Positions 4,401-63,353 of a stretch of DNA of 64,000 bases are shown piece by piece. The notes beneath the pieces are model-generated. The model was not told the origin of the DNA. It was given only the letters and a program-made list of their open reading frames with translations, and searched no databases. Origin of the DNA: a virus (Duplodnaviria > Heunggongvirae > Uroviricota > Caudoviricetes); IMG/VR virus record IMGVR_UViG_3300037510_000012, positions 21,267-85,266 of that record, one strand, 5' to 3'. Both the position numbers and the translations under genes were made by a program. Numbering within the stretch: the first letter of the stretch is position 1; every line of letters starts with the position of its first letter.

Positions 4401-4736
4401 GCCAACAAGAGACTGGCACGATATGTAGAAATCAGCGATTTTGTCCGGGGTTCTAGTAACACATTCGTAAGATTCGTGTATACAAAGCATTTCACAACGT
4501 TGACCGATGGATTCTACTACGTTGTTTCCAATCAGACTCGAAAGACGAAGGCTGGAAAGAATATGGCAGACCTGGTGCTTGCGGATGCTGATAAGAACCT
4601 GTACTCTGTACTAGTGTTCCCACAGATGTTCCACAAGGCATACGGATTCTGTAAGGAAGGTGCCATTGTTGAGGCGACTATCAAGAAGACTCAGGATGGA
4701 GACAGCTACTTCCTTGACGAAGTAATTCCGCGTTGA
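1446..4736 (+). CDS. dnaE: DNA polymerase III alpha subunit (DnaE-like, with N-terminal PHP domain)
   Basis: 1096 aa; N-terminal HLHDYYS..DG PHP motif; finger region ~GxGRGSGAGSLV; TTG start after RBS AAAGGAAAAGG. Confidence 0.9.
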   Translation: MAYTELHLHDYYSTLDGLNSPEEYMQRAKELGMTHLAQTNHGTLLGHREFQKAANNAGIIPILGVEAYISPTDRFDRRAKAKRTDGTNVYNHLIIVSQNETGLKTLQTLNEKAWMEGFYNKPRIDMELLEEHNEGLIVLSGCLNSMLCKAIEAGNYEEAERIALEFKRILGDRFYIEVQAHNPVKMNEALFKIADDNGIKPVVTSDCHYARKEDLWIEEAMLILSTNPKFSKEYDFSKSQKMDMLERFNYLYPDRTMTFEEIQIYLKSAEEQLNDFRSHGFDREDIVKNTEEIASRIEEYPFHQNLDLLPKPKNGNPDDLLEKKARAGLRNRGLDKNPEYVERLEEELEIIKSKDFSTYFLVVANMIKWAKDQGILVGPGRGSGAGSLVNYALGITEVDPIKWGLLFFRFINPERNDFPDIDTDFEDRRRNEIKDYLTRKFTHVASIATVGYFKDKGVVRDAARVFRIDPKETDEALKTIATFEEYQTSSATEEYRKKYPEVEKLANELRGRIRQTGMHAAGIVISKEPIAKYAPIETAADPKDKTAPRRALVALDMNEAADLGLIKLDALGLKTLSVMGDAIKMIEKRHNRKIVLTDIPLEDPKVYNMISAGHTKGVFQCEATPYTGLIMNMGGVNSFAELAASNALVRPGAMNTIGAEYIARKNGESVVTYPHEDMRWFTEETYGEILYQEQVMLTMTELAGMSMATADKVRKIIGKKKDAREFDAYRDEFIEGASKKVSKAVAEKLWHDFEAHAGYSFNKSHAVAYSMISYWTAWLKTYYPVEFIYAMMKNENDKDVRTTYLIEAKRIGVKVKLPHVNHSELDFSVEDDGIRFGLANIKFISDNLGKKLIDARPYENYAALEAKVMEKGNGLNIRVLKSLNAIGAATFVDNPKRGDERHFFYEYLSIPAFEIPDMPPGVNQQFTPLSEFREDGNSIIMGMVKNVKRGSGWSRIEVVDETGEASFFHKEDTLIAPGNMYAMLIANKRLARYVEISDFVRGSSNTFVRFVYTKHFTTLTDGFYYVVSNQTRKTKAGKNMADLVLADADKNLYSVLVFPQMFHKAYGFCKEGAIVEATIKKTQDGDSYFLDEVIPR

Positions 4737-4740
4737 CGGG

Positions 4741-4764
4741 GCGGCCCTTCGGGGCCGCAAGCTT
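4741..4764 (+). repeat. hairpin-CAAGCTT intergenic element (representative copy)
   Basis: GCGGCCC-TTCG-GGGCCGC followed by AAGCTT, then TAAGGAGG and ATG 4782. Confidence 0.8.
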
Positions 4765-4781
4765 TTCTTGTAAGGAGGAAT

Positions 4782-4973
4782 ATGGCTGAGGAGCCTACAC
4801 AAATTGACCTTGCTCCATTTCTCGCGGCGGTAGTTGAAGAGGCTGGTGGGGAAGTAAGGATTCCATATGATGTATTCAGGAATCAGGTTGGCAGTAAGGC
4901 AATTGCGATTGATATTGAAGATGATGGTGCAACCATCGTTCTAAGTCTAGTTGAGGAGATTCCAAGTGAGTGA
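4782..4973 (+). CDS. hypothetical small acidic protein
   Basis: ORF track; RBS TAAGGAGG 8 nt upstream; follows a hairpin-AAGCTT element. Confidence 0.55.
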   Translation: MAEEPTQIDLAPFLAAVVEEAGGEVRIPYDVFRNQVGSKAIAIDIEDDGATIVLSLVEEIPSE

Positions 4974-5322
4974 TTACAGCATGTCAATGAATCAGTATCA
5001 GGACTATACCCTTGATACTGCAATGTATCCTGGTGCGGGTGAGGGTGACCTTCAGGCCATCCTTTATACTACGCTAGGTCTGGCCGGTGAGGCTGGAGAA
5101 ATTCCTAACAAGGTAAAGAAGATTCTCCGGGATGATAATGGTGTCCTGAGTGAAGAGAAGCGTAAGGCAATTCTTGACGAGATTGGCGACGTGCTGTGGT
5201 ACACTGCTCGACTGGCTCATGAATTGGGAGCGAGGCTTGGTGACATTGCTGAGGCAAATGTTGACAAGTTGGAGGACCGAGCAAATCGCGGGGTTATCCA
5301 GGGTAGTGGAGACTACCGCTAA
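4966..5322 (+). CDS. mazG: MazG-like nucleoside triphosphate pyrophosphohydrolase
   Basis: EAGE....IGDVLWYTARLA MazG core; GTG start 7 nt after GAGGAG (track ORF begins at TTG 4951). Confidence 0.7.
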   Translation: MSDYSMSMNQYQDYTLDTAMYPGAGEGDLQAILYTTLGLAGEAGEIPNKVKKILRDDNGVLSEEKRKAILDEIGDVLWYTARLAHELGARLGDIAEANVDKLEDRANRGVIQGSGDYR

Positions 5323-5339
5323 CCTGGTATAATCATAGT

Positions 5340-5540
5340 ATGATGAACGGCTACTTCCTCAGGGGAATCACAGAAGATAACATTTTGGTGTTCCGAAGTG
5401 ATGACCCTGAGGAGCTTCTGCGAATTATTAGGCGACTTTGCGCTAGCCGCGACAAACAAATAAGAGCGCTCGCACAGCAACTAGAAATCGACTGGAATAG
5501 TCGAGAAAATACAAGAAAAGGTAATAATCGTAACAGATGA
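5340..5540 (+). CDS. hypothetical protein
   Basis: ORF track only. Confidence 0.4.
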   Translation: MMNGYFLRGITEDNILVFRSDDPEELLRIIRRLCASRDKQIRALAQQLEIDWNSRENTRKGNNRNR

Positions 5541-6559
5541 GTTTTGAAGATTTCATGTCGAAATTGGACCCAAAGACGGCTAAGCGTCTTCAGGTTGCGC
5601 AGGAGATTGAGACTAAGCAGCTCCCTCTTGCGAGCATTGGTCTAACACACGCTCTGAATGGAGGAATCGGAACCGGCCGGGTTTCTACCTTCTACGGTAA
5701 TCAGAGTAGTGGTAAGTCCCTAGTTCTCATGCAGACAATTGGTTTGCTACAGAAGTTGGGTTATGTTTGCGTATATGCAGATGCAGAGGGTACCTACACA
5801 AAGGAATTCGGTAAGCGTCTCGGTATCAACAATGAAGAGTTGATTTATGTACGCAAGAAGTCTACTGGTGCAATGACTGACAGCATCATTCCTTATATTG
5901 AGGCTGGTGTTGACTTCATGGTCATTGACAGTATCAGTGACTTGCTTCCTGAGGTTTTCGTTGGAACTGATGGAAATGTAAAGGAGTTTGCTGACATGAA
6001 GCAGATTGGTGCTCACGCCAAGTCTATTACTGCCATGCTCAATGCAATTCACTATGCCAACGAAAAGACAGCGGTTGCAATGGTGAGCCAGACAACCACA
6101 AAGATTGAGGCAGCATACGTGCAGCAGGTTCCACACGGTGGGCAGAAGGTTCTATTTGGGTCTTCTCAAATTGTGAAGTTGACCTCAAGCAATACAGATG
6201 CAAAGCAGATTAAGGGTATGGTTCAGCAGGGTGATAGGCTAGTGGAAAAGCCTATTGGTCGTAGAGTTGACCTAATTGTTGAAAAGAACAAGTTGGGTCC
6301 TCAGCATCGTCGTTGTGCATACGATATGTATTACGATGGTCCCCAGGTCGGTGTAGACCTTGCTGGTGAGGTATTTGACCTTGCCGTTGATTTTGGTATC
6401 GTAAACAAGTCAGGCGCATGGTTCAATTACAATGACAAGACTGTTTATACACAGGGTCGTCCAGCCTTCCTTGAGGAGATTAAGCGAGATGATGAATTGT
6501 ACTCACAGTTGAAGAAGGAGGTCAACATCGCCCTGAATGGTGGTGTGATTGACGAGTGA
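5537..6559 (+). CDS. RecA/UvsX-like recombinase (P-loop ATPase)
   Basis: Walker A GNQSSGKS; YADAEGTYTKEFGKRLGI matches RecA FIDAEHALDPIYARKLGV; Walker B MVIDSIS. Confidence 0.8.
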   Translation: MSFEDFMSKLDPKTAKRLQVAQEIETKQLPLASIGLTHALNGGIGTGRVSTFYGNQSSGKSLVLMQTIGLLQKLGYVCVYADAEGTYTKEFGKRLGINNEELIYVRKKSTGAMTDSIIPYIEAGVDFMVIDSISDLLPEVFVGTDGNVKEFADMKQIGAHAKSITAMLNAIHYANEKTAVAMVSQTTTKIEAAYVQQVPHGGQKVLFGSSQIVKLTSSNTDAKQIKGMVQQGDRLVEKPIGRRVDLIVEKNKLGPQHRRCAYDMYYDGPQVGVDLAGEVFDLAVDFGIVNKSGAWFNYNDKTVYTQGRPAFLEEIKRDDELYSQLKKEVNIALNGGVIDE

Positions 6560-7953: not shown

Positions 7954-8736
7954 ATGAAGCGAGAGATTATTCAGGGTCTCAAGTTTCGTAAGCAGCCCGA
8001 GGGTTTCGATGCTAATGAGCTTTCCGAAATCCTTGAGGCTGCTTATCTGAAGCAGCGACGCCCTAACAAGCATACACAGAAGAAGACATTTTCACCTAGC
8101 ACTATCGGATATGGGCATGGCACATGCCCACGATATTGGTTCCTTGCCTTTACGGGCGGGATGTTTATTGACCAGGTAGATGCTCTAGGAATTGCCAACA
8201 TGTCCAATGGTACTCAGGCTCACGAACGTATTGAGAAGTTGTTTGATGACTCTGGGATTCGCCTAGGAAATGAGATTGAAATTACGATGGACAGCCCGCC
8301 TATTCGCGGGTTTGCTGACGTAGAAATCAATTGGAAGGGTGAAGAGGTAATTGGTGAAATCAAGACAACACGTCAGGAATCGTTCCTTGTACGTCAGTCT
8401 ACGATGAAGCCTACAGCCAATCACCTATTCCAAATTCTCATTTATATGAAGGCTAGGAATCGAAAGATGGGCTTTCTGTTGTATGAGAATAAGAATTCAC
8501 AGGAATTCCTCATTCTTCCTATTGAGATGAATGAACAGAACGAGAAGATTGTCAATAATGCACTTGAGTGGATGAGAGAGACATACAAGGCATATACAGA
8601 AGGCAATGTTCCAAACAGACCACTACAGAAGCGCAGCAAGATTTGTAAGGGCTGCCCATTCTATGATTGGTGCTGGAGTGACGATTCTCCTGAGGGAAAG
8701 ATTGATATTCCTGTAATGGAGGTTCCAAAGATTTGA
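7954..8736 (+). CDS. Cas4/RecB-like PD-(D/E)XK exonuclease with Fe-S cysteines
   Basis: N-terminal CPRYWF; C-terminal CKGCPFYDWCW four-Cys cluster; nuclease core D..EIK. Confidence 0.7.
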   Translation: MKREIIQGLKFRKQPEGFDANELSEILEAAYLKQRRPNKHTQKKTFSPSTIGYGHGTCPRYWFLAFTGGMFIDQVDALGIANMSNGTQAHERIEKLFDDSGIRLGNEIEITMDSPPIRGFADVEINWKGEEVIGEIKTTRQESFLVRQSTMKPTANHLFQILIYMKARNRKMGFLLYENKNSQEFLILPIEMNEQNEKIVNNALEWMRETYKAYTEGNVPNRPLQKRSKICKGCPFYDWCWSDDSPEGKIDIPVMEVPKI

Positions 8737-9601: not shown

Positions 9602-9635
9602 GGCGCAGGGCTTCGGCCCAAGCTTAGGAGGAGAA

Positions 9636-17179: not shown

Positions 17180-17419
17180 ATGAAGATTACTCTAGTTAAT
17201 ACTAATGAAGAATGTGCGTGCGTAGGGAAGCATATCCCAAAGCCTCACAAGCTCTATCAGGTTGACTATGACGGTGGGACAGTGTACGTTTGTCCTACTG
17301 CCTACTCCAACTTGGTAGCTCTTGAGGAAGAGTATGCAAAGTACGGCGGGCTTCCGCCCGGCTCTGTACGCAAGCACTATTCAGAGTTTACACATAACCT
17401 CTACCGCCTCTTGACATGA
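17180..17419 (+). CDS. hypothetical protein
   Basis: ORF track. Confidence 0.5.
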   Translation: MKITLVNTNEECACVGKHIPKPHKLYQVDYDGGTVYVCPTAYSNLVALEEEYAKYGGLPPGSVRKHYSEFTHNLYRLLT

Positions 17420-17469
17420 CGGCGGGTGAGGGCTTAAGCTTCTAACACATCGAACGAAGGGAAACGAAA

Positions 17470-19856: not shown

Positions 19857-19985
19857 CAAGCTTTCGGGTCGGCTGGATGAGGGTTATCTAACCTAAACAA
19901 TTATACAGTCAATGGTAATTCCTGGTGGATTCCAGGGAGTGTGGTGACTATAACACCTCTCCCTCGCCAATAACATATCCGAAAA
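19857..19985 (+). ncRNA. structured leader/sRNA unit U1 (5' AAGCTT-TCGGGTCGG ... AACATATCCG 3') immediately upstream of tRNA-Ile
   Basis: 5' GGATGAGGGTTATC pairs with 3' AATAACATATCC (5 bp + 5 bp); internal hairpins TCCTGG/CCAGGG and GGGAG/CTCCC. Confidence 0.35.
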
Positions 19986-19988
19986 CAA

Positions 19989-20063
19989 TGGGGTATAGCT
20001 CGGTCTGGTTAGAGCATTCCGCTGATAACGGAACGGTCGTCGGTTCAAATCCGACTGCCCCAA
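19989..20063 (+). tRNA. tRNA-Ile(GAT)
   Basis: D GCTC..GAGC; anticodon arm TTCCG-CTGATAA-CGGAA; T GTCGG-TTCAAAT-CCGAC. Confidence 0.7.
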
Positions 20064-20462
20064 CTTTATGGGTCGGATTCAGTAGTTTAACTTAAATCCA
20101 AACCGCGTGTCCTAGGTTCGAATCCTAGTCCCGGCTTTCTTGTCGGGGTAGCTCAGTGGCAGAGCAGTGGTCCTTAAAAAACACTATTGAAACAACATAT
20201 CCATTAAATAACTTAAAATTTGCGGGTCGGAAGAATTCAGTTATCTTTCTACCACAAACAATCAGAAAACCGCAGGTTCGACTCCTCGGAGGGATGAATG
20301 TGAGAGGTCACAGCTAGGCATGAAGCTTAGTGAATCCAGCTTCTGAATTCTATAATATATCCGCAAAAGCTTTGGGTCGGATGAAGACGTTTATCGTAAG
20401 TTCAACTCTTATCATCCCCCCTCATGGGGATGGGGCGTGGTGCCCACTCGTTTTCTACAACA

Positions 20463-20559
20463 TACCCATTATGGAAGGTCAATCCGATTGGCGACGGAAC
20501 TTGTCTTGAAAACAAGCGAGGTGTGAAAGCCCTTAGGAGTTCGACTCTCCTACCTTCCG
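20463..20559 (+). tRNA. tRNA-Ser(TGA), class II with a long variable arm
   Basis: Acceptor GGAAGGT/ACCTTCC 7/7; anticodon arm CTTGT-CTTGAAA-ACAAG; T AGGAG-TTCGACT-CTCCT. Confidence 0.6.
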
Positions 20560-20579
20560 CTTTACCCTAAGGAGTAAAA

Positions 20580-20765
20580 TTGACTGAGACAGAGAATGTC
20601 GGTCCTACATCGTATCAGCTAGCAATCATCCTTGCACTTCAGAGCAAGCATGTATACGCTAACACAGTTAGTTACGATGAGATTGCACGACGACGTAAGG
20701 CAAGCAAGCGAGCGCGGCTACAGCGCAGAACAAACAGAAGGCTTGACACGACACGTCGCTCGTGA
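20580..20765 (+). CDS. hypothetical small basic protein
   Basis: TTG start 5 nt after AAGGAG; lies between tRNA-Ser and tRNA-Asp. Confidence 0.35.
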   Translation: MTETENVGPTSYQLAIILALQSKHVYANTVSYDEIARRRKASKRARLQRRTNRRLDTTRRS

Positions 20766-20844
20766 TAAGGTTTTATTAGATGGTCGGCAAGCAGGGAAGA
20801 GAAGGCTACAGGAGCTTGAGCAACAACACCTTCCACCATCACAT

Positions 20845-20917
20845 GCGTCGTTAGTTCAGCGGTCAGAGCACTGCCCTGTCAAGGCAGAAGTCGCGGGTTC
20901 GAATCCCGTACGGCGCG
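20845..20917 (+). tRNA. tRNA-Asp(GTC)
   Basis: Acceptor GCGTCGT/ACGGCGC; anticodon arm CTGCC-CTGTCAA-GGCAG; T GCGGG-TTCGAAT-CCCGT. Confidence 0.85.
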
Positions 20918-20947
20918 CTTTCGTAAAGGAATAAAGAGGGAGTTCTA

Positions 20948-21148
20948 ATGGCACGAGTTAAGAAGTTTGACCTTGTTGAGCTTGACAAGGAAGGCTGGTT
21001 CTCTGCTAAGGTAAGTGGAAAGTTCCGGGGTTTGGTCGAGAAGACTGGACGAAGCAACTACACTCTTCACCTTGGCAAGAACGATGTAACTAACTTCAAG
21101 ACTAAGAAGGCTCTTGAGACTTGGCTCACCGAGAAGTGGGCATCATAA
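20948..21148 (+). CDS. hypothetical protein
   Basis: ORF track; RBS GGAATAAAGAGGGAG. Confidence 0.5.
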   Translation: MARVKKFDLVELDKEGWFSAKVSGKFRGLVEKTGRSNYTLHLGKNDVTNFKTKKALETWLTEKWAS

Positions 21149-21239
21149 TTAAATATTGATAAACGTTCGGGTCGGATGTAATTGCTTATCTATTATGGGA
21201 ATAAAACGCGATTACTCTAACATATCCGTTCTAAACTTC

Positions 21240-21395
21240 TAGCCCTAACAATTTCGGGTCGGAGTTTCTTGGTTACCTTACTATGCATGAGAAGTTGTCG
21301 GTTCGAATCCGGCCGGGTCCATTCATGGGCCTGTAGTTTAATTGGCAAAACTTACACCGAGGAACGTTTCATATCCGTCTTAATTGTTAGGGCTA
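21240..21395 (+). ncRNA. candidate Y RNA-like tRNA-mimic: a 14-bp terminal helix enclosing a tRNA-like T-arm module
   Basis: TAGCCCTAACAATT (21240-53) is the perfect reverse complement of AATTGTTAGGGCTA (21382-95). Inside are GGGTCGGAG, a T-arm GTCGG-TTCGAAT-CCGGC and tRNA-5'-half-like GGGCCTGTAGTTTAATTGGCAAAACT. It lies 650 nt upstream of the Ro60 gene. Confidence 0.4.
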
Positions 21396-21974: not shown

Positions 21975-22047
21975 TAATTTCATAGCCGGTAATACCGGCA
22001 AGCTTCCATAAACAATATGCCCAAAATGGGCCGAAAGGATTAGAAAA

Positions 22048-23664
22048 ATGTCTAATGCACTTGGTAAGTTTGCTGCTTCTCAGAAGCAGGAGCGCGTTGC
22101 TACGCCTCAGACAAAGCGTACCCCTGGTCGTACGGATGAGGTCAAGAACAACGCGGGCGGGTTTGTGTTCAAGGTAGACGACAAGTCTCGTCTTGAGCGC
22201 TTCCTGGTGTTGGGTACTGACAAGGGTACCTATTACGTTGGTGAGCAGAAGTTGACGGCTCAGAACATTTCCTTCCTGAAGGAGATGGTCCGTAAGGATG
22301 AGCGTCTGGTCGTGGACACTGCTGTTGACGTCTCTGTAAACGCTCGTGCGCTTAAGAATTCTCCTGCGCTGTTCGCTATGGCTCTGGTCATGACGGAGGG
22401 CAAGGACAAGGCTTACGCTCGTGAGGCCGTACAGAAGGTTGCTCGTACGTCTACCCACCTTTTCGAGTACGCACAGTACATCGATGACCTGGGTGGTTGG
22501 GGTCGAGCAAAGCGTCGTTCTGTCGCTGAGTGGTACGAGAACAAGTCTATCGATGCGCTTGCGTATCAGGCTGTGAAGTACCGTCAGAGGAACGGTTGGA
22601 CGCACCGTGACCTTTTCCGTCTTGCTCACCCTCAGGGTGTAGACCAGGGTGTTGGTAACTTCATCCTTGGCAAGGACGTTGAGGCTGAGGTGGAAATTCT
22701 TAAGGGCTTCGCTGCAATGCAGTCTGCGACTTCGGTCAAGGATGTTATTCGCACGCTGGAGACTTTCAAGAACCTTCCTTGGGAGACCATCCCTACTCAG
22801 TTCCTCAAGGATGTGAAGGTCTGGAAGACTCTGTTCTACAACGGTCAGCTTCGTGGCCAGGCTCTCATTCGCAACATTACTCGACTCGCTCGAATTGGTG
22901 CGTTTGATGACATGGTTTTCGCAACTGACTACGCGAACGCAATTGCTAACCAGGAAATGATTCAGAAGACTCGTCTTCACCCAATCAACTTCCTGAATGC
23001 GGTTGTTGTTCACGAGAGTGGACAGATTGACCGTAACGGTTACAGCATGTGGAGTGCCGGACGTAAGAAGGATTGGAAGTCTAACGGAAAGATTGTGGAT
23101 GCTCTCAATGAGGGATTCCACATGGCATTCAAGACTGTCGAGCCTTCTGGCAAGAGGACTCTGGTTGCGACTGACGTGTCTGGCTCAATGAGTCAGGCTG
23201 CCATCGGACTTGACCTCTCTTGTGCTCAGGTTTCTGCGGCTGTTGCTATGACGGTTGCGCGTTCCGAGCCTTACAGTGACATTGTTGGCTTCTCTAGCAG
23301 CATTGTTGACTTGGGCATTACCGCTAAGAGTTCTTTTGCCGACGCAATGCGTAAGGTGAGTAACAGGAACTTTGGTGGTACGGATGCGGCTGCTGCAATT
23401 AAGTACGCTAACCAGAAGGGAATTCAGGTTGACACCTTCGTAGTTATCACTGATAACGAGACGTGGGGCGGAAGCCAGAAGCCTTTCCAGGCACTTAAGC
23501 AGTACCGTCAGAAGACCGGAATTGATGCGCGTCTTGCGGTTCTCGGTGTGGCGTCTACGGACTTCACCATCGCTGACCCTACGGACCGTGGAATGATGGA
23601 CTTCGTTGGTTTCGATGCAAATGCGCCTAAGGCCCTCGCGGACTTCAGCGCTGGTCGTATCTGA
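22048..23664 (+). CDS. rsr: Ro60/Rsr ortholog (TROVE domain plus C-terminal vWA with a MIDAS motif)
   Basis: 538 aa; C-terminal vWA with DVSGSM MIDAS motif at ~370; N-terminal HEAT-like TROVE region; bacterial and phage Rsr genes usually sit beside Y RNA genes. Confidence 0.7.
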   Translation: MSNALGKFAASQKQERVATPQTKRTPGRTDEVKNNAGGFVFKVDDKSRLERFLVLGTDKGTYYVGEQKLTAQNISFLKEMVRKDERLVVDTAVDVSVNARALKNSPALFAMALVMTEGKDKAYAREAVQKVARTSTHLFEYAQYIDDLGGWGRAKRRSVAEWYENKSIDALAYQAVKYRQRNGWTHRDLFRLAHPQGVDQGVGNFILGKDVEAEVEILKGFAAMQSATSVKDVIRTLETFKNLPWETIPTQFLKDVKVWKTLFYNGQLRGQALIRNITRLARIGAFDDMVFATDYANAIANQEMIQKTRLHPINFLNAVVVHESGQIDRNGYSMWSAGRKKDWKSNGKIVDALNEGFHMAFKTVEPSGKRTLVATDVSGSMSQAAIGLDLSCAQVSAAVAMTVARSEPYSDIVGFSSSIVDLGITAKSSFADAMRKVSNRNFGGTDAAAAIKYANQKGIQVDTFVVITDNETWGGSQKPFQALKQYRQKTGIDARLAVLGVASTDFTIADPTDRGMMDFVGFDANAPKALADFSAGRI

Positions 23665-23716
23665 AACACTGCCCCCTCTTCGGAGGGGGCAAGCTTGTTA
23701 AAGGAGAACAGTTTGA

Positions 23717-25026: not shown

Positions 25027-25104
25027 GCCCCAGTATCGCCACTGGCTTCTAACCAGTCGTTAACAGCGTAATGGAGTATGCAGGTTCGAATCCTGTCTGG
25101 GGTA
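25027..25104 (+). tRNA. tRNA, atypical (possible TCT anticodon; D-arm unclear)
   Basis: Acceptor GCCCCAG/CTGGGGT 7/7; T GCAGG-TTCGAAT-CCTGT; internal hairpin ACTGG-CTTCTAA-CCAGT. Confidence 0.45.
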
Positions 25105-32451: not shown

Positions 32452-32475
32452 GCGGCCCTTCGGGGCCGCAAGCTT
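32452..32475 (+). repeat. hairpin-CAAGCTT element (identical stem-loop to the 4741 copy)
   Basis: GCGGCCCTTCGGGGCCGCAAGCTT. Confidence 0.8.
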
Positions 32476-35999: not shown

Positions 36000-36038
36000 T
36001 TTTTCGGCGGGGTTCGCCCCGCCAAGCTTGGAGGAGAA

Positions 36039-37129: not shown

Positions 37130-37153
37130 GCAACTGCGGCTTCGGCCGCAAGC

Positions 37154-37183
37154 TTGACAACCACATCGGTTGTCTGTTAAGAT
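37154..37183 (+). promoter_or_regulatory. promoter TTGACA-N18-TAAGAT upstream of tRNA-Leu
   Basis: AAGCTTGACAACC ... TTAAGATAGAAT. Confidence 0.55.
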
Positions 37184-37199
37184 AGAATACATAACGCAA

Positions 37200-37489: not shown

Positions 37490-37529
37490 AAAACAGGTGG
37501 GGTTCGCCCCACCAAGCTTAGGAGGTAAA

Positions 37530-38625: not shown

Positions 38626-38649
38626 GCGGCCCTTCGGGGCCGCTAGCTT
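38626..38649 (+). repeat. hairpin-TAGCTT element (same stem-loop, variant tail)
   Basis: GCGGCCCTTCGGGGCCGCTAGCTTTTT. Confidence 0.7.
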
Positions 38650-40379: not shown

Positions 40380-40444
40380 TCAGGGCGGGGTTCATAAAGA
40401 GCCCCGCAAGCTTCATTGGTTCGAAAACAAAGGAGATATAACCA

Positions 40445-42370: not shown

Positions 42371-42430
42371 TTGGTCGGCCCCGAAAGGGGCCAAGCTCCG
42401 GAAATGTCTAATATTAGGAGATAAAACAAA

Positions 42431-43438: not shown

Positions 43439-43479
43439 TCGGTTCGCCCCTTCGGGGGCAAGCTTACTAAGGAGGAACA

Positions 43480-43638: not shown

Positions 43639-43685
43639 TACACTAGCCTCTCCGGAGGCAAGCTTCCTAACGAAAGGAGATATTA

Positions 43686-44983: not shown

Positions 44984-45011
44984 GGTTTATTCTTTGTGGC
45001 GAAACCCGGTG

Positions 45012-45041
45012 TTGACAAAGCACCGGGTTTTTGCTTATACT
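45012..45041 (+). promoter_or_regulatory. promoter TTGACA-N18-TATACT upstream of tRNA-Lys, embedded in a terminator hairpin
   Basis: CCCGGTG-TTGACAAAG-CACCGGGTTTTT hairpin plus TATACT. Confidence 0.5.
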
Positions 45042-49081: not shown

Positions 49082-49137
49082 TAGATACATCGGGTCGGAC
49101 GGTTGACAAATAATCCGACCTAACATACACTTAGAGT

Positions 49138-50627: not shown

Positions 50628-50648
50628 GGGGGTTCGCCCCCAAGCTTC
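50628..50648 (+). repeat. hairpin-CAAGCTT element, GGTTCG-loop subtype
   Basis: GGGGGTTCGCCCCC-AAGCTT; related copies at 36006-36029, 37495-37519 and 43446-43465. Confidence 0.8.
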
Positions 50649-50668
50649 CATTACAAAAGGAGAAGATA

Positions 50669-51124
50669 ATGGATATTCTGTTCTGGATTTGGGTAGTACC
50701 GGCCGGATTCTTCACTACAATTTTCCTGCTGGTTGCACTATTCGCTTCGTTGATTAACATTCAGACAGGCGCTGTTCTTGGCGGATTGGCAATTGGAATC
50801 TTTGGTCCGCCTGTTGCTGTCGCTCTTGGTGCTCTCTGGCCTGTTACTTGGCCTCTGTTTTCACTTCTTGGTAAGCTGGATGAAAAGCGAACCGAAAAGC
50901 GCAATCAGGAATATGAGAAGCAGCTTGCTAAGGGAAAGAACTATGGCAAGTTGATGAAGATTACCGAGAGCTATCCTCACCTTCCCGATGAGTACCTTGG
51001 TGCTATCGTAAAGGTCATTCAGTGGCATGAGCCTGGCAAGCACAATGCTTACGTTGAGTTTATTGACCAGAAGATTCGCCCTGGTCGATTCTATTGGCGA
51101 CACTCCATGATGGAGGAAGTCTGA
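50669..51124 (+). CDS. membrane protein
   Basis: After hairpin-AAGCTT; RBS AAAGGAGAAG. Confidence 0.55.
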   Translation: MDILFWIWVVPAGFFTTIFLLVALFASLINIQTGAVLGGLAIGIFGPPVAVALGALWPVTWPLFSLLGKLDEKRTEKRNQEYEKQLAKGKNYGKLMKITESYPHLPDEYLGAIVKVIQWHEPGKHNAYVEFIDQKIRPGRFYWRHSMMEEV

Positions 51125-51167
51125 TAGAATGGGACTTCGGTCCCAAGCTTCCCGAAAGGAGATTGTT

Positions 51168-51467
51168 ATGGGATGGGTGTTGGTCGTTGCTATCCTGGCT
51201 GCGCTATGGTACCGTAGCAATTACAAGGGTGCCATGAAGATGTACGAGCATGAGCGTGAACTGAGTAAGCTTGCTAGTGGCGAAAACTACCGTCGTCTGG
51301 TAAGGTTCACTCATAACAACAGGAAGTACGAGGCTCGTATTCGTAGGTGGGATGTTCCTGAGTCAGACGAGAATGTTGCTGAACTTTGGTGCGTTGAAGG
51401 TTCCAATCCTGACGGATGGACACAGTTCTTTCTTTGGGATAAGGATGAACTGAAGTTCGTTGATTGA
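51168..51467 (+). CDS. membrane-anchored protein
   Basis: ATG after GAAAGGAG; the track ORF 51129 begins inside the hairpin motif. Confidence 0.5.
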   Translation: MGWVLVVAILAALWYRSNYKGAMKMYEHERELSKLASGENYRRLVRFTHNNRKYEARIRRWDVPESDENVAELWCVEGSNPDGWTQFFLWDKDELKFVD

Positions 51468-51517
51468 GAATCCGCCCGGTTTCGTAAACGGGCAAGCTTT
51501 AGTAATAAGGAGGAAGT

Positions 51518-51766
51518 ATGACCGCTTGGATTATGGGAATCTATTTCGTTGGTTTCGGCCTCTGTTTCCTGTTTCTGCTTGTTATGGCGGGAGTTGGCAA
51601 TAGTCCTGGCCTTGGCAGTTCACTTGGTTCTGAGGTAGTAACGTTCGTAATGCTCGGTTCCTTTCTGTGGCCTGTGCTTCTTGTAATTTCAATTATGGCT
51701 GGTGGCTGGTATGCCGTCAGGCGACTGCTTGGAAAGGAAAAGAATGGACTTCGTAACACTGCATGA
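51518..51766 (+). CDS. small membrane protein
   Basis: After hairpin-AAGCTT; RBS AAGGAGGAAG. Confidence 0.5.
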   Translation: MTAWIMGIYFVGFGLCFLFLLVMAGVGNSPGLGSSLGSEVVTFVMLGSFLWPVLLVISIMAGGWYAVRRLLGKEKNGLRNTA

Positions 51767-52358
51767 AATGATTCCTCGGGCAACCGGAGATAAACTTCAT
51801 GTGATGGAAATGAAGCCATATCCTAACATTACCCTCGCTATGCCGGGAAGGCATCAGAATGATACCGACCCTGTTGGCGGGGATTTTGTTGTTATGGTAG
51901 ATGATGTAAATATGGGTTGGGTAAAGCATCAGTTTACTCATGGCGACCTTTGGGATGACCTTGAGAGCAAGTTGATTGCCGACCCTATGAGTGCTAAGAT
52001 GCTCATGCGTGATTACGCGATGGTCGTTCGTGGTGCTGCGCCTGAAGACACAGCATGGGACTTTGAGAACGGTTTGGTTCCTGAGGACCTAGATGAGCCT
52101 TGGGACAATACGCTGTTGCCTCAAACGTTTCTGTACGCCGTTCAGTGCCTAGCTGTGGCTGAGCATCGACGCTACTGGAAGCACGAACGAGACGGAGGCG
52201 GAAGGTACTTGCCAGCACGCTTCTCCATGGGTATCATAGAAGGCAGATGGAAGGCAGAAGACGCCAAGGCTTATCAGTATCGTGGTCGTCAAGGGCTTGA
52301 GAATCTGATTAAGGAGAAGGGCCGTCCGACTTCTCTGAAGAAGTTTGCTGAACAGTAA
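51744..52358 (+). CDS. hypothetical protein
   Basis: Internal ATG after GGAAAGGAAAAG. Confidence 0.5.
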   Translation: MDFVTLHEMIPRATGDKLHVMEMKPYPNITLAMPGRHQNDTDPVGGDFVVMVDDVNMGWVKHQFTHGDLWDDLESKLIADPMSAKMLMRDYAMVVRGAAPEDTAWDFENGLVPEDLDEPWDNTLLPQTFLYAVQCLAVAEHRRYWKHERDGGGRYLPARFSMGIIEGRWKAEDAKAYQYRGRQGLENLIKEKGRPTSLKKFAEQ

Positions 52359-52404
52359 ATTTCGTGGGGTTTCGTAAAGAAGCCCCAAGCTGTATACTAG
52401 ACAC

Positions 52405-52674
52405 ATGGATGAAATTTGTGAGGAACTAGCGCACTGGTTTCTAGTGCATGATTACAAGTGGAAGTTTGATTACGGCCATGGCAATCCCGATGAAAAGGAT
52501 ATTGCAGCAGTAATCAAAAAGGCAATGCAACTGCTTAGTGTTGAAGAAACAGATACCAGACTTGAGGTTGGTAGGCTAATCTTCATGAAGAATGCTGAGC
52601 TTGGTCTAGTAGACATTTATGTTCACGCTGGGACTATTGAGGAGAATTCACTAAATGAGGACAGCAACGTTTGA
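52405..52674 (+). CDS. hypothetical protein
   Basis: After hairpin-AAGCTG. Confidence 0.5.
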   Translation: MDEICEELAHWFLVHDYKWKFDYGHGNPDEKDIAAVIKKAMQLLSVEETDTRLEVGRLIFMKNAELGLVDIYVHAGTIEENSLNEDSNV

Positions 52675-53077
52675 CTACACTGAGATGGCCGTAGTTGACA
52701 GCAGCTTTATCGACGCTGTTTACTACAACGACAAGAGCAGTGAGCTTGCCGTTTCAATGCTGAATGGCGACACGCATTTCTATGCGGATGTGCCTGCACG
52801 CGTTTTCTACAGCATGGTTGACGGTTCTTCCGCTGGTGCTGCCTATAACCGAGAGGTTAAGGACCAGTACACAAACATTGCGGGCGGACCTGTTCATGAG
52901 GTACAGTTTGTTGAGCACGAGGTTGGTGTAACCAAGCGCTTCAACGTAAAGGCTGTGGTAGTATTTCAGCAGTGGTTTGACGCTGAATCTGCTGCGGACG
53001 CTGCCAAGCAGATGGAGAAGTACATGGCTCCGAACTATGGCAACGTATCAATCACGGAGGTTAAGGAAGTTGGGTGA
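52655..53077 (+). CDS. hypothetical protein
   Basis: ORF track. Confidence 0.5.
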   Translation: MRTATFDYTEMAVVDSSFIDAVYYNDKSSELAVSMLNGDTHFYADVPARVFYSMVDGSSAGAAYNREVKDQYTNIAGGPVHEVQFVEHEVGVTKRFNVKAVVVFQQWFDAESAADAAKQMEKYMAPNYGNVSITEVKEVG

Positions 53078-53381
53078 GGTTCGTAAGGTCCGTACACTAA
53101 CGGAACTTCACGAAATTATGAACGACAATGATAAGGTCGTTCTTGACTTGGCTGCACCGTCATGGTGTGTTCCTTGTCAGAGGCTTGAGCCTCATTTTAA
53201 GAAGGCTGCTGAAAAGTCGGAGGCTGCGTTCGTTCAGGTAGATATTGAGGATGCCGAACAGGATATTCTCAACACCTATCCGACACAAAGTGTTCCAACG
53301 GTTCTTCTCTTGCAGAAGGGTGAGCCAACTGCTACGCTTAAGGGACGTACTTCGGTAGCACTTCTTAAGGAGATTGGGTAA
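53070..53381 (+). CDS. trx: thioredoxin
   Basis: WCVPC active site about 31 aa from a TTG start that follows GGAGG. Confidence 0.65.
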   Translation: MGEVRKVRTLTELHEIMNDNDKVVLDLAAPSWCVPCQRLEPHFKKAAEKSEAAFVQVDIEDAEQDILNTYPTQSVPTVLLLQKGEPTATLKGRTSVALLKEIG

Positions 53382-53388
53382 ATCTCGC

Positions 53389-53417
53389 GGGGGTTTCGTA
53401 AAGAGACCCCCAAGCTT
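53389..53417 (+). repeat. hairpin-CAAGCTT element, TTTCGTAAAGA-loop subtype
   Basis: GGGGG-TTTCGTAAAGAGA-CCCCC-AAGCTT; similar copies at 52366-52392, 56028-56059, 51474-51499 and 58674-58697. Confidence 0.8.
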
Positions 53418-53432
53418 CTCAACAAAGGAGAA

Positions 53433-53690
53433 ATGATGCTGAGCGATATTGACCTTCCTGAACTTCCTTCTGGATATCGATGGAAGTTTTATAGGAGCAA
53501 GGCAAGTGGGAGCGATATCTTGGCTATCCAGAAGCGCTGGCTTGGTGTTTGGTATAGCGAAGAAATCTCATTCCCTAGTATTTATAAGTCATATGGTGAT
53601 AGTAATGAGAAGGCTATTAAGAAGGCTGCACAGTCAGCTTTCAGACGATTCAATCAGGACTTCTCTCGATACTATGGTACTAAGCCGTAA
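53433..53690 (+). CDS. hypothetical protein
   Basis: After hairpin-AAGCTT; RBS AAAGGAG. Confidence 0.5.
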   Translation: MMLSDIDLPELPSGYRWKFYRSKASGSDILAIQKRWLGVWYSEEISFPSIYKSYGDSNEKAIKKAAQSAFRRFNQDFSRYYGTKP

Positions 53691-53708
53691 TTCTATAAAG
53701 GAGACATA

Positions 53709-53873
53709 GTGGCTAACATTGGTGGTGCTTCCCCTAAGAATCTGATTATGCGGGCAGAGTTGATGATTGATAGCCTGCCTGACTATAATGCAGACCTTAA
53801 GGCTGAAAAGGCTGAGTTGCTTCTTCGTCTTGCTGAGGCTAAGATGGAGTTCCTGAAGCAACCCGAGGAGTAA
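53709..53873 (+). CDS. small hypothetical protein (54 aa)
   Basis: GTG after AAAGGAG. Confidence 0.4.
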   Translation: MANIGGASPKNLIMRAELMIDSLPDYNADLKAEKAELLLRLAEAKMEFLKQPEE

Positions 53874-53932
53874 CACAATGGGCCGAAAGGCCCAAGCTTT
53901 CCTACTAACATACACAGAAAAGGAATAGGAAA

Positions 53933-54183: not shown

Positions 54184-54214
54184 TGGGCTAGGGGAGAAAT
54201 CCCCTAGCCTTTTT
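54184..54214 (+). terminator. rho-independent terminator
   Basis: GGGCTAGGGGAGAAATCCCCTAGCC followed by TTTTTG. Confidence 0.75.
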
Positions 54215-54232
54215 GTATTGGAGGAAGCTTGT

Positions 54233-55720: not shown

Positions 55721-55828
55721 AAATCTTGGAGGGTAGCTCTTGACAAGCTACCCTCAAGCTAGTTAAACTAGAAAAAGAATAAAACAAGTTATAGCAAAGA
55801 GAAGAATATAGAATAGGTTAATATAATT

Positions 55829-56017: not shown

Positions 56018-56076
56018 GGTATCGTAAAGGGGCTTTCGTAAAGAAGGCCCCTTAAGCTTCCTAAAGGAGAGGTGAT

Positions 56077-57453: not shown

Positions 57454-57497
57454 AATTGGGCGGGTTGTTCGTTGACCCGCCAAGCTTTGGAGGAAAC

Positions 57498-57718: not shown

Positions 57719-57862
57719 ATGGCTGCAAAGTTGCCCGGACACAAGTGGCAAGTCACTGGTTCGGATAAGAAGAAGTCTGCTTTTGTGTATACCTGTCGCA
57801 AGTGCAAGTGTGTTACACTTAGTGGTGAGCCGCTACCGGCTCCGTATGATAAGACATGCTAG
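57719..57862 (+). CDS. small Cys protein (47 aa)
   Basis: RBS TAGGAGGTAGG. Confidence 0.35.
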   Translation: MAAKLPGHKWQVTGSDKKKSAFVYTCRKCKCVTLSGEPLPAPYDKTC

Positions 57863-57863
57863 C

Positions 57864-57893
57864 TTGACAACCAACAAGGAAGGTTGGTAGTAT
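57864..57893 (+). promoter_or_regulatory. promoter TTGACA-N18-TAGTAT (leaderless gene at 57901)
   Basis: AGCTTGACAACC again. Confidence 0.5.
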
Positions 57894-58082: not shown

Positions 58083-58463
58083 ATGATTGAGTATAACACC
58101 ACCTGTATTGTCGGTGGAAGTGAGATGCTTTGTGACCTTAAGTATGATGTTGATAGTCCTGCTGAGGTCAGCTTTACATTCCATACCCCCGACAAGTCTC
58201 CTGAGTGGGTTTTCTCAAGGGAGCTTCTTAAGGAAGCAATGTCTGACCGTGGAATGTCTGGAGAAGGTGACGTTCTTTTCTATGACCATGGTGATGCAGT
58301 CAGTATGCTTCTAAAGTCTCCGGAGGGAACTGGACTCGCCATTTTCCAGCGGGGTGTTATCAAGGAATTCGTTGAAGAAATCTACCATGAGGTAGAAGAG
58401 GACGACGACAAGTATTTCCTTCCAGACCAGGAACTTAAGGAATGGCTGGAAGGTTTGGTTTAA
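58083..58463 (+). CDS. hypothetical acidic protein
   Basis: ORF track. Confidence 0.55.
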   Translation: MIEYNTTCIVGGSEMLCDLKYDVDSPAEVSFTFHTPDKSPEWVFSRELLKEAMSDRGMSGEGDVLFYDHGDAVSMLLKSPEGTGLAIFQRGVIKEFVEEIYHEVEEDDDKYFLPDQELKEWLEGLV

Positions 58464-58667: not shown

Positions 58668-58703
58668 AGGACTCGCCCCACGAAAGTGGGGCAAGCTTCA
58701 GGG

Positions 58704-59969: not shown

Positions 59970-60064
59970 AAGTTCCCCGGCTGGGGAGTTGACACAAGAC
60001 TCCCCAGCCTGATAGTCTTAGTACATCAAGGCAAGACAAACAAACTCTAAGGAGAATACAGAAA

Positions 60065-61087: not shown

Positions 61088-61093
61088 TACCTA

Positions 61094-61119
61094 GCGGCCC
61101 CTTCGGGGGCCGCAAGCTT
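61094..61119 (+). repeat. hairpin-CAAGCTT element
   Basis: GCGGCCCCTTCGGGGGCCGCAAGCTTTTT. Confidence 0.8.
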
Positions 61120-61140
61120 TTTCCTAGGAAGGGAAAATAA

Positions 61141-61338: not shown

Positions 61339-61378
61339 GAAAGACCGGGGTTTCGGCCCCAAGCTGCAAGGAGGAAAT

Positions 61379-61717: not shown

Positions 61718-61997
61718 TAAACTAAATACATGTTCGTTAGGTGATAGGACACCTTTTCTCTCAAAGGATTCCGGTACCTCTATCAGTCTAGTCAGGCGAG
61801 AGGCTAAGTAACAAGTCGGCTGTTATGCCGGAATCCATTCACTTTGGTATATGGTAATGTAAACTACTATGAATGGAGAAGAAAGATGCCCAACGTTTTT
61901 GATTACGATGACGAGTCCAACGACGTTCGCATTGAGGCGGATTCTCCGGAGGACAGCATTTACATTCGTGATGGACTTATCGATTTCTAGGAGTTAA

Positions 61998-62258
61998 TTG
62001 ATGACCGGACTTGAGAATACCAGTGATGCCGTAATTATTCAGCTTATTAGTAATCTTAAGTCCGGCATCCTTAAGGTTGCAGAAATGGGAGATGAGGCTT
62101 ACAAGTCTCGTGGACCCAAGGAAAACCCCCCGATTTCAGCAGTTGAAGTTAACATGAGTTTGATTGGCGCGTTTGAGCCTGAGTGCAAGAGGCGTGGAAT
62201 TGATGTTGATGCAATTGAGCCTGATATCCGGGAGATTAGTATTGTATGGACTTACTAA
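61998..62258 (+). CDS. hypothetical protein
   Basis: ORF track. Confidence 0.5.
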   Translation: MMTGLENTSDAVIIQLISNLKSGILKVAEMGDEAYKSRGPKENPPISAVEVNMSLIGAFEPECKRRGIDVDAIEPDIREISIVWTY

Positions 62259-62273
62259 GAAAAGGAAAAAACA

Positions 62274-62483
62274 TTGGCAATTGTACGTATCAGCACTATT
62301 CTGAAGAATGCTCCGTCTGTTGGTATCCAGTCTTGTATCTATGGTGTCGAGTGTGAAACCATTGAGGCTAATGACCCGGCCGGAATTGTCTTTGAACTAA
62401 TGGGAAGCCGAGAGAAGATTGCCAACGTTGTTGGCCGCACTGGTTCCCGCATTCTTAGTGTTGCTGAGCCTGTAGGTAAGTGA
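62274..62483 (+). CDS. hypothetical protein
   Basis: ORF track; followed by a terminator. Confidence 0.45.
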   Translation: MAIVRISTILKNAPSVGIQSCIYGVECETIEANDPAGIVFELMGSREKIANVVGRTGSRILSVAEPVGK

Positions 62484-62488
62484 GACTG

Positions 62489-62516
62489 CCCCGTCAGAAA
62501 TGGCGGGGTTTTCTTG
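62489..62516 (+). terminator. rho-independent terminator
   Basis: CCCCGTCAGAAATGGCGGGG followed by TTTTCTT. Confidence 0.7.
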
Positions 62517-62586
62517 TCTCACTGGTAGGTTGACAGACCTACCAAGCTTGCTGTAGAGTTCTTCTCAGAACGAAGGGAGACATAGA

Positions 62587-63267
62587 GTGTCCAAGGCAAC
62601 GTATCCTCTGGGTAAGCTGATGAAGCGTGACAAGGGTGTCTGCTGGCTTTGTAGGAAGCTTGTAGACCGTGACCATGCTACGCGTGACCACGTGATTCCG
62701 TACTCGCATGGCGGACCGAATCATGAGGCCAACCTTAAGCTTGCTCATCGTAAGTGCAACGAGAAGCGTGAGAACAAGGTCTTGATTTCTAAGGCTGAAA
62801 AGCTTACAATTCTCCTGAAGGTACAGAGCCACATGTGCTTTAGGTGTGTAAAGCCTTTGCACAGTGATGATGCAATGATTTCTCAGGACTGCCCGCGTGG
62901 CTCTCTTCGTGAAATCAAGATTGCAATTTGTAAGTCGGGATGCGAAAAGAACTATGGCATTCCCTTCCAGCAGCGTCGGAAGTTGAATGAGGTTCGCATC
63001 GCTAAGCGAATTGAGTCGAGAAAGAATAGGATTCCAATGGAAATGGTTGTTGCTGATTCTCTTTCTGCTGACCAGCTTGAGTCTGGCGATTACGTCAGGT
63101 TTTTCGCTGAGAATGCTCTTCGGTTCGGAATTGTCCGGGATGTAGTGGACAATGACGAATTCTTTACCATCACCCTTGAAGATGACGTTGAGGGAGATGT
63201 TGAAGAGTACGCGGTTGACCCTGAAACCGTGTTTTCTCTTCTTGTTCATGAGGCTGTTGCAGTCTAA
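62587..63267 (+). CDS. HNH endonuclease
   Basis: CWLC...DH.IP.S.GG.N...N...AH..CN; GTG after AGGGAGACATAG. Confidence 0.65.
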   Translation: MSKATYPLGKLMKRDKGVCWLCRKLVDRDHATRDHVIPYSHGGPNHEANLKLAHRKCNEKRENKVLISKAEKLTILLKVQSHMCFRCVKPLHSDDAMISQDCPRGSLREIKIAICKSGCEKNYGIPFQQRRKLNEVRIAKRIESRKNRIPMEMVVADSLSADQLESGDYVRFFAENALRFGIVRDVVDNDEFFTITLEDDVEGDVEEYAVDPETVFSLLVHEAVAV

Positions 63268-63353
63268 TTGAACGGGCGGGTTGACAAAACTCGCCCAAGC
63301 TTGCTAGTCTTCTTACATAAGCCCAATGAAGGGAGAATTGTAAGGAGAAGACT

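Follow-up and report, generated by a model that had tools for sequence, protein, structure and literature searches.

The closest described analogues of the element reported here are two sets of intergenic phage cassettes. Promoter-early stem-loop (PeSL) cassettes of the T4-type phages RB49 and phi1 are repeated GC-rich stem-loop cassettes among small non-essential genes, with about 100 bp of similarity, a sigma-70-type promoter as their conserved core and a stem-loop that is an effective terminator; they bound insertions, deletions and replacements of ORFans, and the idea of a seam was proposed for them (Arbiol et al. 2010, PMC2839356). The SAS and ESAS sequences of cluster K mycobacteriophages combine an invariant 13-mer, GGGATAGGAGCCC, which includes the ribosome-binding site and lies near the start codon, with inverted repeats upstream, 17-bp conserved repeats in the case of ESAS, and neither a function nor a reader has been assigned to them (Pope et al. 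2011, PMC3203893). Here we describe an element from a 64,000-nucleotide (nt) stretch of phage DNA, positions 21,267 to 85,266 of IMG/VR record IMGVR_UViG_3300037510_000012 (the window), in which a GC-rich hairpin just after one gene is followed directly by the hexamer AAGCTT and then by the ribosome-binding site of the next gene.

Like a PeSL, the element is a repeated intergenic GC-rich stem-loop among small genes, its stem-loop may lie between or over the −35 and −10 boxes, and it bounds insertions and deletions of ORFans. Unlike a PeSL, it has a sigma-70-type promoter in only 6 of 28 window copies, the other 22 being promoterless; its core is only C-AAGCT(T), its hairpin sequence is free, and host, phage lineage and sequence are all unrelated. 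With SAS/ESAS it shares specificity to actinobacteriophages, a fixed orientation and all-or-none presence at each junction; both occur only among the non-structural genes in one half of the genome, and both place an unvarying short sequence close to gene starts, immediately preceded by inverted repeats. The hexamer is, however, distinct from the ribosome-binding site and tied to the stop codon of the preceding gene, its hairpin has no conserved sequence, and CAAGCT(T) lies 9–51 nt from the start codon. Integron attC sites offer a further parallel, in that co-oriented, mostly promoterless cassettes each carry a hairpin site and a short core at their boundary, but attC hairpins are imperfect, 57–141 nt long, read by an integrase as single-stranded DNA and equipped with GTTRRRY and RYYYAAC cores, whereas this element has a short, perfect hairpin with a loop of RNA type, its core is AAGCTT, and the related phage Gilson has no annotated integrase or other tyrosine recombinase. 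Intercistronic C(UUCG)G hairpins in phage T4 mRNAs, reportedly described by Tuerk and colleagues in 1988, are likewise extra-stable UUCG hairpins between phage cistrons, and a C-G pair closes 9 of the 12 TTCG loops of the window; the T4 hairpins are not known to carry a conserved hexamer on their 3′ side or to keep a set distance from the stop codon. The element thus lacks the defining features of PeSL, SAS/ESAS, intrinsic terminators (see below) and attC sites. No description of the motif was found in the literature searched, which included papers on these phages, and of the Rfam covariance models run on the window only those for tRNA and tmRNA reached their gathering scores, none matching the element.

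AAGCTT occurs 46 times in the window, compared with 20.4 ± 4.6 times in dinucleotide-preserving shuffles. A perfect GC-rich hairpin ends at the hexamer, or 1 nt into it, in 24 of these 46 copies, against a background of 0.98% of positions (binomial P ~4e-36), and the reverse arrangement of the hairpin and AAGCTT is found only twice. The remaining 22 copies have no stable upstream fold and correspond to the chance number, and avoidance or enrichment of a restriction site was therefore rejected as an explanation. Once variants at position 6 (AAGCTC at 42393, AAGCTG at 52387 and 61361, AAGCTA at 55756) and one TAGCTT (38644) are counted, the window holds 28 elements; one counted at 49126 is AT-rich and atypical. 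Among 38 strong hairpins in the window, AAGCT comes next in 19 and a T-run in 7, the latter being canonical terminators. The original prediction, that a hairpin-AAGCTT unit is repeated in front of genes, is thus borne out, its figure of more than 30 copies being too high. It had given 32 coordinates, 27 of which are genuine, while five have no hairpin: the hexamer at 17436 forms the −10 box TAAGCT of a promoter, those at 19858 and 20367 lie directly before Y-RNA-like units, that at 54225 lies between a ribosome-binding site and an ATG after a canonical terminator, and the fifth is at 21395. The copy at 55756 had been overlooked, several positions were 1–10 nt off (57492 for 57482), and a site placed at 57860 as promoter-fused reads TAGCTTGACA.

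Streptomyces phages of the Gilson group match the window at 83–87% nucleotide identity over most of its length, no identical record being found, and the phage is a Gilson-like member of the Stanwilliamsviridae, subfamily Loccivirinae. The window, whose counterpart in Gilson lies at roughly 47–111 kb, carries replication and recombination genes, a terminase gene, 31 tRNAs, a tmRNA, rIIA/rIIB and numerous small genes; all of these seem to lie on the plus strand. We compared ten Loccivirinae genomes or loci (the window, Gilson, Comrade, Annadreamy, an IMG/VR isolate, a metagenome contig, Francob, Stigma, TunaTartare and Ankus) with two representatives of the sister subfamily Boydwoodruffvirinae, namely EGole (Samistivirus) and a 25-kb stretch of Bordeaux (Karimacvirus). 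Relatives had been proposed as the place to look for count and strand bias; across the ten Loccivirinae, AAGCTT follows a hairpin 210 times on the plus strand and 7 times on the minus strand. Gilson has 43 elements on the plus strand and 2 on the minus strand, all but two of them within 47–120 kb among non-structural genes; its block of minus-strand genes contains none. Ankus, from a different Loccivirinae genus with 52% GC, has 40 elements, and its "minus" matches are the same AAGCTT copies with hairpins on both sides. Roughly 40 genes per genome thus carry the end element in this phage and its subfamily.

EGole and the Bordeaux stretch contain no elements; their gene-end hairpins are in many cases followed by T-runs and often then by a TTGACA promoter. 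When IMG/VR was scanned with the pattern CCCTTCGGGN{1,6}CAAGCTT, contigs with several elements were only Loccivirinae isolates and a few low-GC metagenome contigs, taken as relatives, and single matches elsewhere look like chance. As judged from these sequences, the element is a trait of one subfamily, the Loccivirinae, and is absent from the sister subfamily as sampled. EGole has a repeated intergenic module of its own: its terminal repeats, where genes are on the minus strand, carry a C(UUCG)G hairpin and, after it, tGTCGGGCCCGGACA, a sequence that folds into another hairpin overlapping the first (for example at 3388–3399, 8099–8110 and 127700–127711).

Bases 1–5 of the hexamer are invariant. 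Above background only position 6 varies (AAGCTC 11, AAGCTA 10 and AAGCTG 5 copies), the final T being 88–89% conserved; other one-mismatch variants, and all other NRRCNT hexamers, follow hairpins at background level. A C precedes the motif in 94% of copies, and downstream of it nothing is conserved beyond a mild excess of C at +6 and +7. The commonest loops are TTCG (46) and GAAA (40), together with a family containing TTCGTAAAG, and the complementary loops CGAA and TTTC are not among the 25 commonest. UUCG and GNRA are tetraloops that stabilise RNA, and it is therefore in the sense transcript that the hairpin is selected. Separately, an 8-mer, TCGTAAAG, occurs 15 times on the plus strand and not at all on the minus strand of the window (18:4 in Gilson, 17:2 in Francob, 8:5 in EGole); its sites, such as 42360, 52372, 53396, 56022, 56036, 57368 and 58662, lie in the loops of AAGCTT hairpins, just upstream of these hairpins, and in the 3′ ends of coding regions (rIIA ends in TTC GTA AAG TGA).

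Covariation among the copies within a genome would be circular, as the copies had been chosen by their perfect stems, and a fixed-geometry alignment, which retained only 15 sequences, was not used; we relied instead on orthologous junctions anchored on the downstream gene only. AAGCT is found at the expected place in 77 of 87 such junctions, and the 10 motif-less junctions lack the whole element. All 103 upstream 28-mers fold at ≤ −6 kcal/mol (mean −11.7), compared with 17% of random 28-mers, while their sequences mostly differ between orthologues; before rIIA, ten phages have nine distinct upstream sequences. Homology 3′ of AAGCTT tracks the downstream gene and homology 5′ of it tracks the upstream gene. 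Hairpin potential is thus kept while the sequence changes, which together with the strand-specific RNA tetraloops agrees with the proposal of an RNA-level signal in the original prediction, whose loop types, missing U-tract and downstream Shine-Dalgarno (SD) sequence were also accurately described.

Spacing was measured on each side of 224 elements, with 216 cases for the stop codon. From the end of the upstream stop codon to the start of the hairpin the median distance is 6 nt, with 5–7 nt in 67% and 4–9 nt in 84% of cases. From the end of the motif the median distance is 10 nt to the SD sequence (10th–90th percentile 2–29 nt; range 0–29 nt rather than the 3–12 nt given before) and 21 nt to the start codon (interquartile range 17–32 nt, extremes 9–51 nt). 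The tight stop spacing and the variable downstream spacing tie the element to the end of the upstream gene rather than to the ribosome-binding site, just ahead of which the original prediction had placed it. To stay outside the entry of the ribosomal mRNA channel, a helix must begin at least 4–5 nt after the A-site codon, and we infer that the hairpin is placed at the closest distance to the stop codon at which a terminating ribosome would not unwind it. Ensemble predictions show the stem as paired throughout (unpaired probability 0.02, mean −13 kcal/mol) and, in most copies, the first two A of the motif as exposed, with more than 90% unpaired, while GCUU is often weakly paired with the SD region, each of the two being only ~50% unpaired; the mean unpaired probability of the motif is 0.55.

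The reading that we favour, with somewhat less than even confidence, is that the element is an RNA-level punctuation mark at gene ends in the long co-oriented non-structural, presumably early or middle, transcripts of Loccivirinae. The spacer of 5–7 nt would leave the hairpin outside the ribosome entry channel, so that it would survive translation, and RNA polymerase would read through the elements, since a run of efficient terminators would silence the genes downstream. A sequence-specific endoribonuclease would cut the exposed hexamer, whereby the upstream cistron would keep a hairpin-capped 3′ end that resists 3′ exonucleases and the downstream cistron would become a separate RNA starting a few nt before its ribosome-binding site. 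Host RNase E is the leading candidate because AAG↓CUU (the arrow marking the cut) matches the actinobacterial preference for RR↓CNU. The mycobacterial enzyme cleaves directly before a cytidine, with RR↓CNU as its motif in vivo and RN↓CNU in vitro (PMC10641625, PMC6448022), and AAG↓CUU conforms to both. The encoded CCA ends of S. coelicolor tRNAs are cleaved between their two Cs (PMC4681348), which shows that an activity cleaving 5′ of a C immediately after a helix exists. RNase E processing sites beside stabilising stem-loops in polycistronic mRNAs, as in selective RNA processing and stabilisation, resemble the element in being intercistronic and, as far as prediction goes for the element, at least partly single-stranded and in their RR↓CNU fit (PMC10641625, PMC6448022), but they are degenerate, whereas the hexamer is invariant at five positions and its cleavage is a prediction.

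Several points weigh against this proposal. The hexamer is far more constrained than RR↓CNU, other NRRCNU hexamers following hairpins at background level; RNase E would not explain the invariant first A or the U at +2, and the +3 U that it prefers is the only variable base. This extra invariance points to another, more specific reader or to additional constraints. Cleavage at the hexamer is something that we infer, the specificity of Streptomyces RNase E is extrapolated from mycobacteria, GCUU is predicted to be partly paired with the SD region in many copies, and a downstream fragment with a 5′-monophosphate should be vulnerable to RNase J. The endoribonuclease site suggested originally is plausible, in that it fits the mycobacterial enzyme, while being more invariant than RNase E needs.

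No Loccivirinae-specific nuclease emerged either when clade-specific proteins were searched with Pfam, which likewise weighs against the punctuation proposal. Some 20–30 small proteins occur across the sampled Loccivirinae and are absent from EGole and the Bordeaux fragment; among these, Pfam identified a Macro domain, a second RNA ligase, a zinc ribbon, an HNH protein, a DnaQ-like exonuclease, an SsgA-like protein and, weakly and below threshold, a C5-methylase-like protein, and no endoribonuclease. Gilson gp143, the best-conserved protein without an assigned function, was excluded as a trans factor, as its stretch has no counterpart in the window. Gilson gp7 (1641–2246, minus strand), a 201-residue protein annotated as "DNA methylase" with 65% identity in Ankus and absent from EGole, matches C5-cytosine methylases only weakly and below threshold; AAGCTT contains the AluI site AGCT, and no link between gp7 and the element was found. 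The SsgA-like protein (126 residues, 58083–58460; Pfam E = 2e-13) belongs to a Streptomyces sporulation and cell-division family and is present in all Loccivirinae sampled and absent from EGole. A bolder version of punctuation, which we regard as doubtful, is a dedicated sequence-specific system in which "helix end + CAAGCU" would be recognised by a factor of phage or host origin that would cleave or label every gene boundary of the non-structural, presumably early or middle, transcripts. Equally doubtful is its combination with the recombination seam discussed below, which would yield exchangeable cassettes, an integron-like modular array defined at the RNA level.

The hairpin and AAGCUU might instead stop some polymerases, or all of them until a phage antiterminator acts. 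Such a leaky or factor-dependent terminator or attenuator, which would grade or time gene expression along the non-structural region, is in our judgment unlikely. Its appeal is that the hairpins are built like the canonical terminators of this phage (GC-rich, with the same UUCG and GAAA loops) and stand at gene ends, a GC-rich hairpin directly after a gene being a feature of intrinsic terminators, and that many Streptomyces 3′ ends, the "I-shaped" ones, lie at stable hairpins without a U-tract (PMC8269248). In a few copies a T-run does follow the hexamer: after the DnaE-like polymerase gene at 4741–4764 (gcggcccTTCGgggccgc + AAGCTT, then AGGAGG and ATG), in the variant at 38626–38649 (gcggcccTTCGgggccgc + TAGCTT + TTTG) and at 61094–61119 (gcggccccTTCGggggccgc + AAGCTT + TTTTC). 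In addition, the orthologous site of the terminator T47254 alternates between ATTTTCTTTC and ATTAAGCTTTT, one of the two having an AAGCTT-containing tail, and in EGole a canonical terminator and then a promoter stand after rIIB in place of the element. However, only 2 of the 28 window elements have a T-run of at least 5 T in 8 nt, the 3′ flank being AAGCT(T), and the TAGCTT copy reads AAGCTT in three relatives (Comrade, Stigma and Annadreamy, as AAGCTTTTG). Of eight canonical terminators in the window, six have a T-rich tail in all of the orthologues recovered, so that terminators and elements form largely distinct classes. Since the element has no U-tract and coexists with this largely separate class, it is not a canonical terminator, as had been stated originally. 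Efficient termination is unlikely in addition, because runs of at least six elements without a strong promoter-like site between them, for example at 50642–53894, would silence the downstream genes; the gene layout argues for read-through. Weak termination would need only a degenerate U-poor tail and leaves the invariant hexamer unexplained, and the Gilson annotation lists no antiterminator or RNA polymerase.

Terminators of this phage also occur in compound arrangements. At 45002–45041, TTGACA lies in a hairpin loop with a −10 box (TAnnnT) just downstream, a layout also seen at 59979–60016, 55729, 62523 and 63274; the hairpin at 45002 is preceded by an A-tract and followed by a T-run, looks like a canonical terminator overlapping the next promoter, and is conserved in six relatives. 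At 54185–54232 a canonical terminator is followed by TTGGAGG-AAGCTT-NN-ATG; Gilson, Francob, Stigma and TunaTartare also have this hexamer between ribosome-binding site and start codon, with variation in the next two bases.

At the DNA level, the same hexamer at every unit boundary would allow recombination to remove, insert or replace whole cassettes cleanly. Small genes have been deleted, inserted or replaced in at least nine independent events whose two breakpoints both fall exactly at AAGCTT, with one intact element remaining. The elements at 43446–43465, after rIIB (gccccTTCGggggc + AAGCTT), and 43646–43665 (gcctcTCCGgaggc + AAGCTT) are the 5′ and 3′ seams of a 180-nt cassette between rIIB and a phosphoesterase gene that is absent from Francob. 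Those at 53389–53417 (gggggtTTCGTAAAGAGaccccc + AAGCTT) and 53879–53899 (tgggccGAAAggccca + AAGCTT) flank in the same way a 461-nt cassette after the thioredoxin gene; Gilson lacks this cassette, and Comrade and Stigma have a different one in its place. Among 57 clean indels in four genomes, 13 have both ends and 14 one end at an element, although only 4–7% of positions lie within 45 nt of one. That hairpin-AAGCTT is a target or micro-homology for cassette exchange, on the lines of integron attC sites or T4-type PeSLs, and is kept by repeated use of a nuclease or recombinase nevertheless strikes us as rather improbable. The arrays do consist of small co-oriented genes of unknown function, AAGCTT is palindromic, and the phages encode RecA-like, RuvC-like, endonuclease VII and several HNH proteins. 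Against this, strand-specific RNA tetraloops are needless for a DNA site, the hexamer is read asymmetrically (invariant first A, less conserved last T), 6–7 bp of homology is very short, and no tyrosine or serine recombinase is annotated in Gilson. The other 30 indels have an element at neither end, and because about a quarter to 40% of junctions in the region, by our estimate, carry the element, indels that merely respect gene boundaries would look similar. As a description the seam role is real, though it may be a by-product.

Still less probable is a translational device, in which the hairpin would insulate cistrons by blocking re-initiation or scanning and CUU(CC) would pair with the SD sequence to tune initiation. 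A hairpin 5–7 nt after the stop codon has the geometry of structures that meet the ribosome entry channel, and the excess of C at +6 and +7 and the partial pairing of GCUU with the SD sequence would suit this idea. Yet the distance from motif to SD sequence is not fixed; the SD sequence abuts the hexamer in several copies, where pairing is impossible; what follows some elements is a promoter and a tRNA and not a coding gene (37135); and the invariant AAG is left unexplained. Elements whose hexamer adjoins the SD sequence include 9608–9625 (gggcTTCGgccc + AAGCTT, AGGAGG), 36006–36029 after the RNA ligase gene (ggcggggTTCGccccgcc + AAGCTT, GGAGG), 37496–37519 (ggtggggTTCGccccacc + AAGCTT, AGGAGG) and 57459–57487 (ggcgggtTGTTCGTTGacccgcc + AAGCTT, hexamer at 57482).

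A promoter reading, originally called unlikely, was rejected: where the SD sequence abuts the hexamer, a transcript starting downstream would lose it. A promoter-like site overlaps 6 of the 28 elements, and in the other 22 none lies between the element and the next ribosome-binding site. The overlap occurs in two registers, either as AAGC-TTGACA or AAGC-TTGCCT, or with the −35 box inside the hairpin loop and AAGCTT in the spacer, which upholds the view that promoter-fused copies reveal a modular element. The first register is seen at 237–260 (gggaggaACTTtcctccc + AAGCTT), where the TT of the hexamer starts a −35-like TTGCCT with TACAAT 18 nt on, and at 37135–37155 (tgcggcTTCGgccgca + AAGCTTGACA as −35, then 18 nt, TAAGAT and tRNA-Leu). 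In the promoter-type elements at 55729–55761, 62523–62549 and 63274–63302, TTGACA lies in the hairpin loop and is followed by AAGCTA and the −10 box TAAACT, by AAGCTT in the spacer and TAGAGT, and by AAGCTT and TAGTCT, respectively. An N4-type hairpin promoter for a phage RNA polymerase was dropped, as no polymerase or sigma factor is annotated in Gilson. That CAAGCT is itself a −10-like element or a sigma-dependent pause site for the host or a phage-modified RNA polymerase is very improbable: it agrees with a −10 hexamer in its A at position 2 and its T at position 6, and TAAGCT is the −10 box of a TTGACA-N18 promoter-like site at 17404–17441, but the SD sequence abuts the hexamer at 9620, 36024, 37514 and 57482, a start 6–7 nt downstream would give a 3–4 nt leader that excludes the conserved SD sequence, real promoters overlap the element in the two registers just described (AAGCTTGACA, or −35 in the loop), and Gilson lacks an annotated sigma factor or RNA polymerase. 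At 37151–37185 the −35 box TTGACA lies inside a second inverted repeat in the promoter spacer (TTGACAACCacatCGGTTGTCtgtTAAGAT), which resembles an operator palindrome and is conserved with covarying arms in eight relatives; a similar sequence lies near 57855–57893.

The remaining elements, like those above, are all on the plus strand. The Ro60-like gene is preceded by one at 21985–22005 (gccggtAATaccggc + AAGCTT) and followed by one at 23670–23696 (tgccccctcTTCGgagggggca overlapping AAGCTT), whose hairpin is wholly different in Gilson. At 32452–32475 the hairpin is again gcggcccTTCGgggccgc, with AAGCTT, and the stems of its orthologues differ in sequence with pairing kept. The rII region has an element before rIIA at 40385–40413 (gcggggTTCATAAAGAGccccgc + AAGCTT) and another between rIIA and rIIB at 42377–42398 (ggccccGAAAggggcc + AAGCTC). 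Further copies lie at 50628–50647 (gggggTTCGccccc + AAGCTT), 51130–51150 (tgggacTTCGgtccca overlapping AAGCTT), 51474–51499 (gcccgGTTTCGTAAAcgggc + AAGCTT), 52365–52392 (tggggTTTCGTAAAGAAGcccca + AAGCTG), 56027–56059 (aaggggcTTTCGTAAAGAAGgcccctt + AAGCTT) and 61347–61366 (ggggTTTCGGcccc + AAGCTG), and the one at 58675–58698 (gccccacGAAAgtggggc + AAGCTT) is followed by TTGACA within a second hairpin.

Upstream of the Ro60-like gene, the region 19866–21350 contains six units that start with GGGTCGG, at 19866, 20070, 20224, 20374, 21169 and 21256, several of which end in a tRNA-like T-arm. The gene just downstream (22048–23664) encodes 538 amino acids, and its EGole counterpart is annotated as "Ro-like RNA binding protein". 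The YrlA model gives sub-threshold matches at 20079–20193 (E = 0.0014, a full-length model match) and 21292–21352, and the units are probably phage Y RNAs, to go by these sequence features. The AAGCTT copies in front of two of them (19858 and 20367), which have no hairpin, had been taken to suggest that the motif may define the 5′ ends of small RNAs; the units read as Y-RNA-like genes and are no evidence of that. A tRNA-Ser(tga) at 20473–20558 scores exactly at the gathering threshold of the tRNA-Sec model, and an extra weak Rfam tRNA (34 bits) that ARAGORN does not call lies at 25027–25104.

For the Loccivirinae, the element is a reliable gene-end marker for annotation, and it accounts for where some cassettes are exchanged between these phages. 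Sister subfamilies mark gene boundaries differently, one with a hairpin and a U-tract and the other with a hairpin and AAGCUU. If the element is a processing or stabilisation signal, it would provide a portable part of ~25 nt with which adjacent cistrons could be made independent in stability in Streptomyces, a host of industrial importance for which such tools are scarce, and ~40 natural sites per genome with which to define recognition by actinobacterial RNase E or by a new factor. A dedicated punctuation system, if true, would mean that bacteria and their viruses have a further, novel way of punctuating operons, with a logic comparable to mitochondrial tRNA punctuation.

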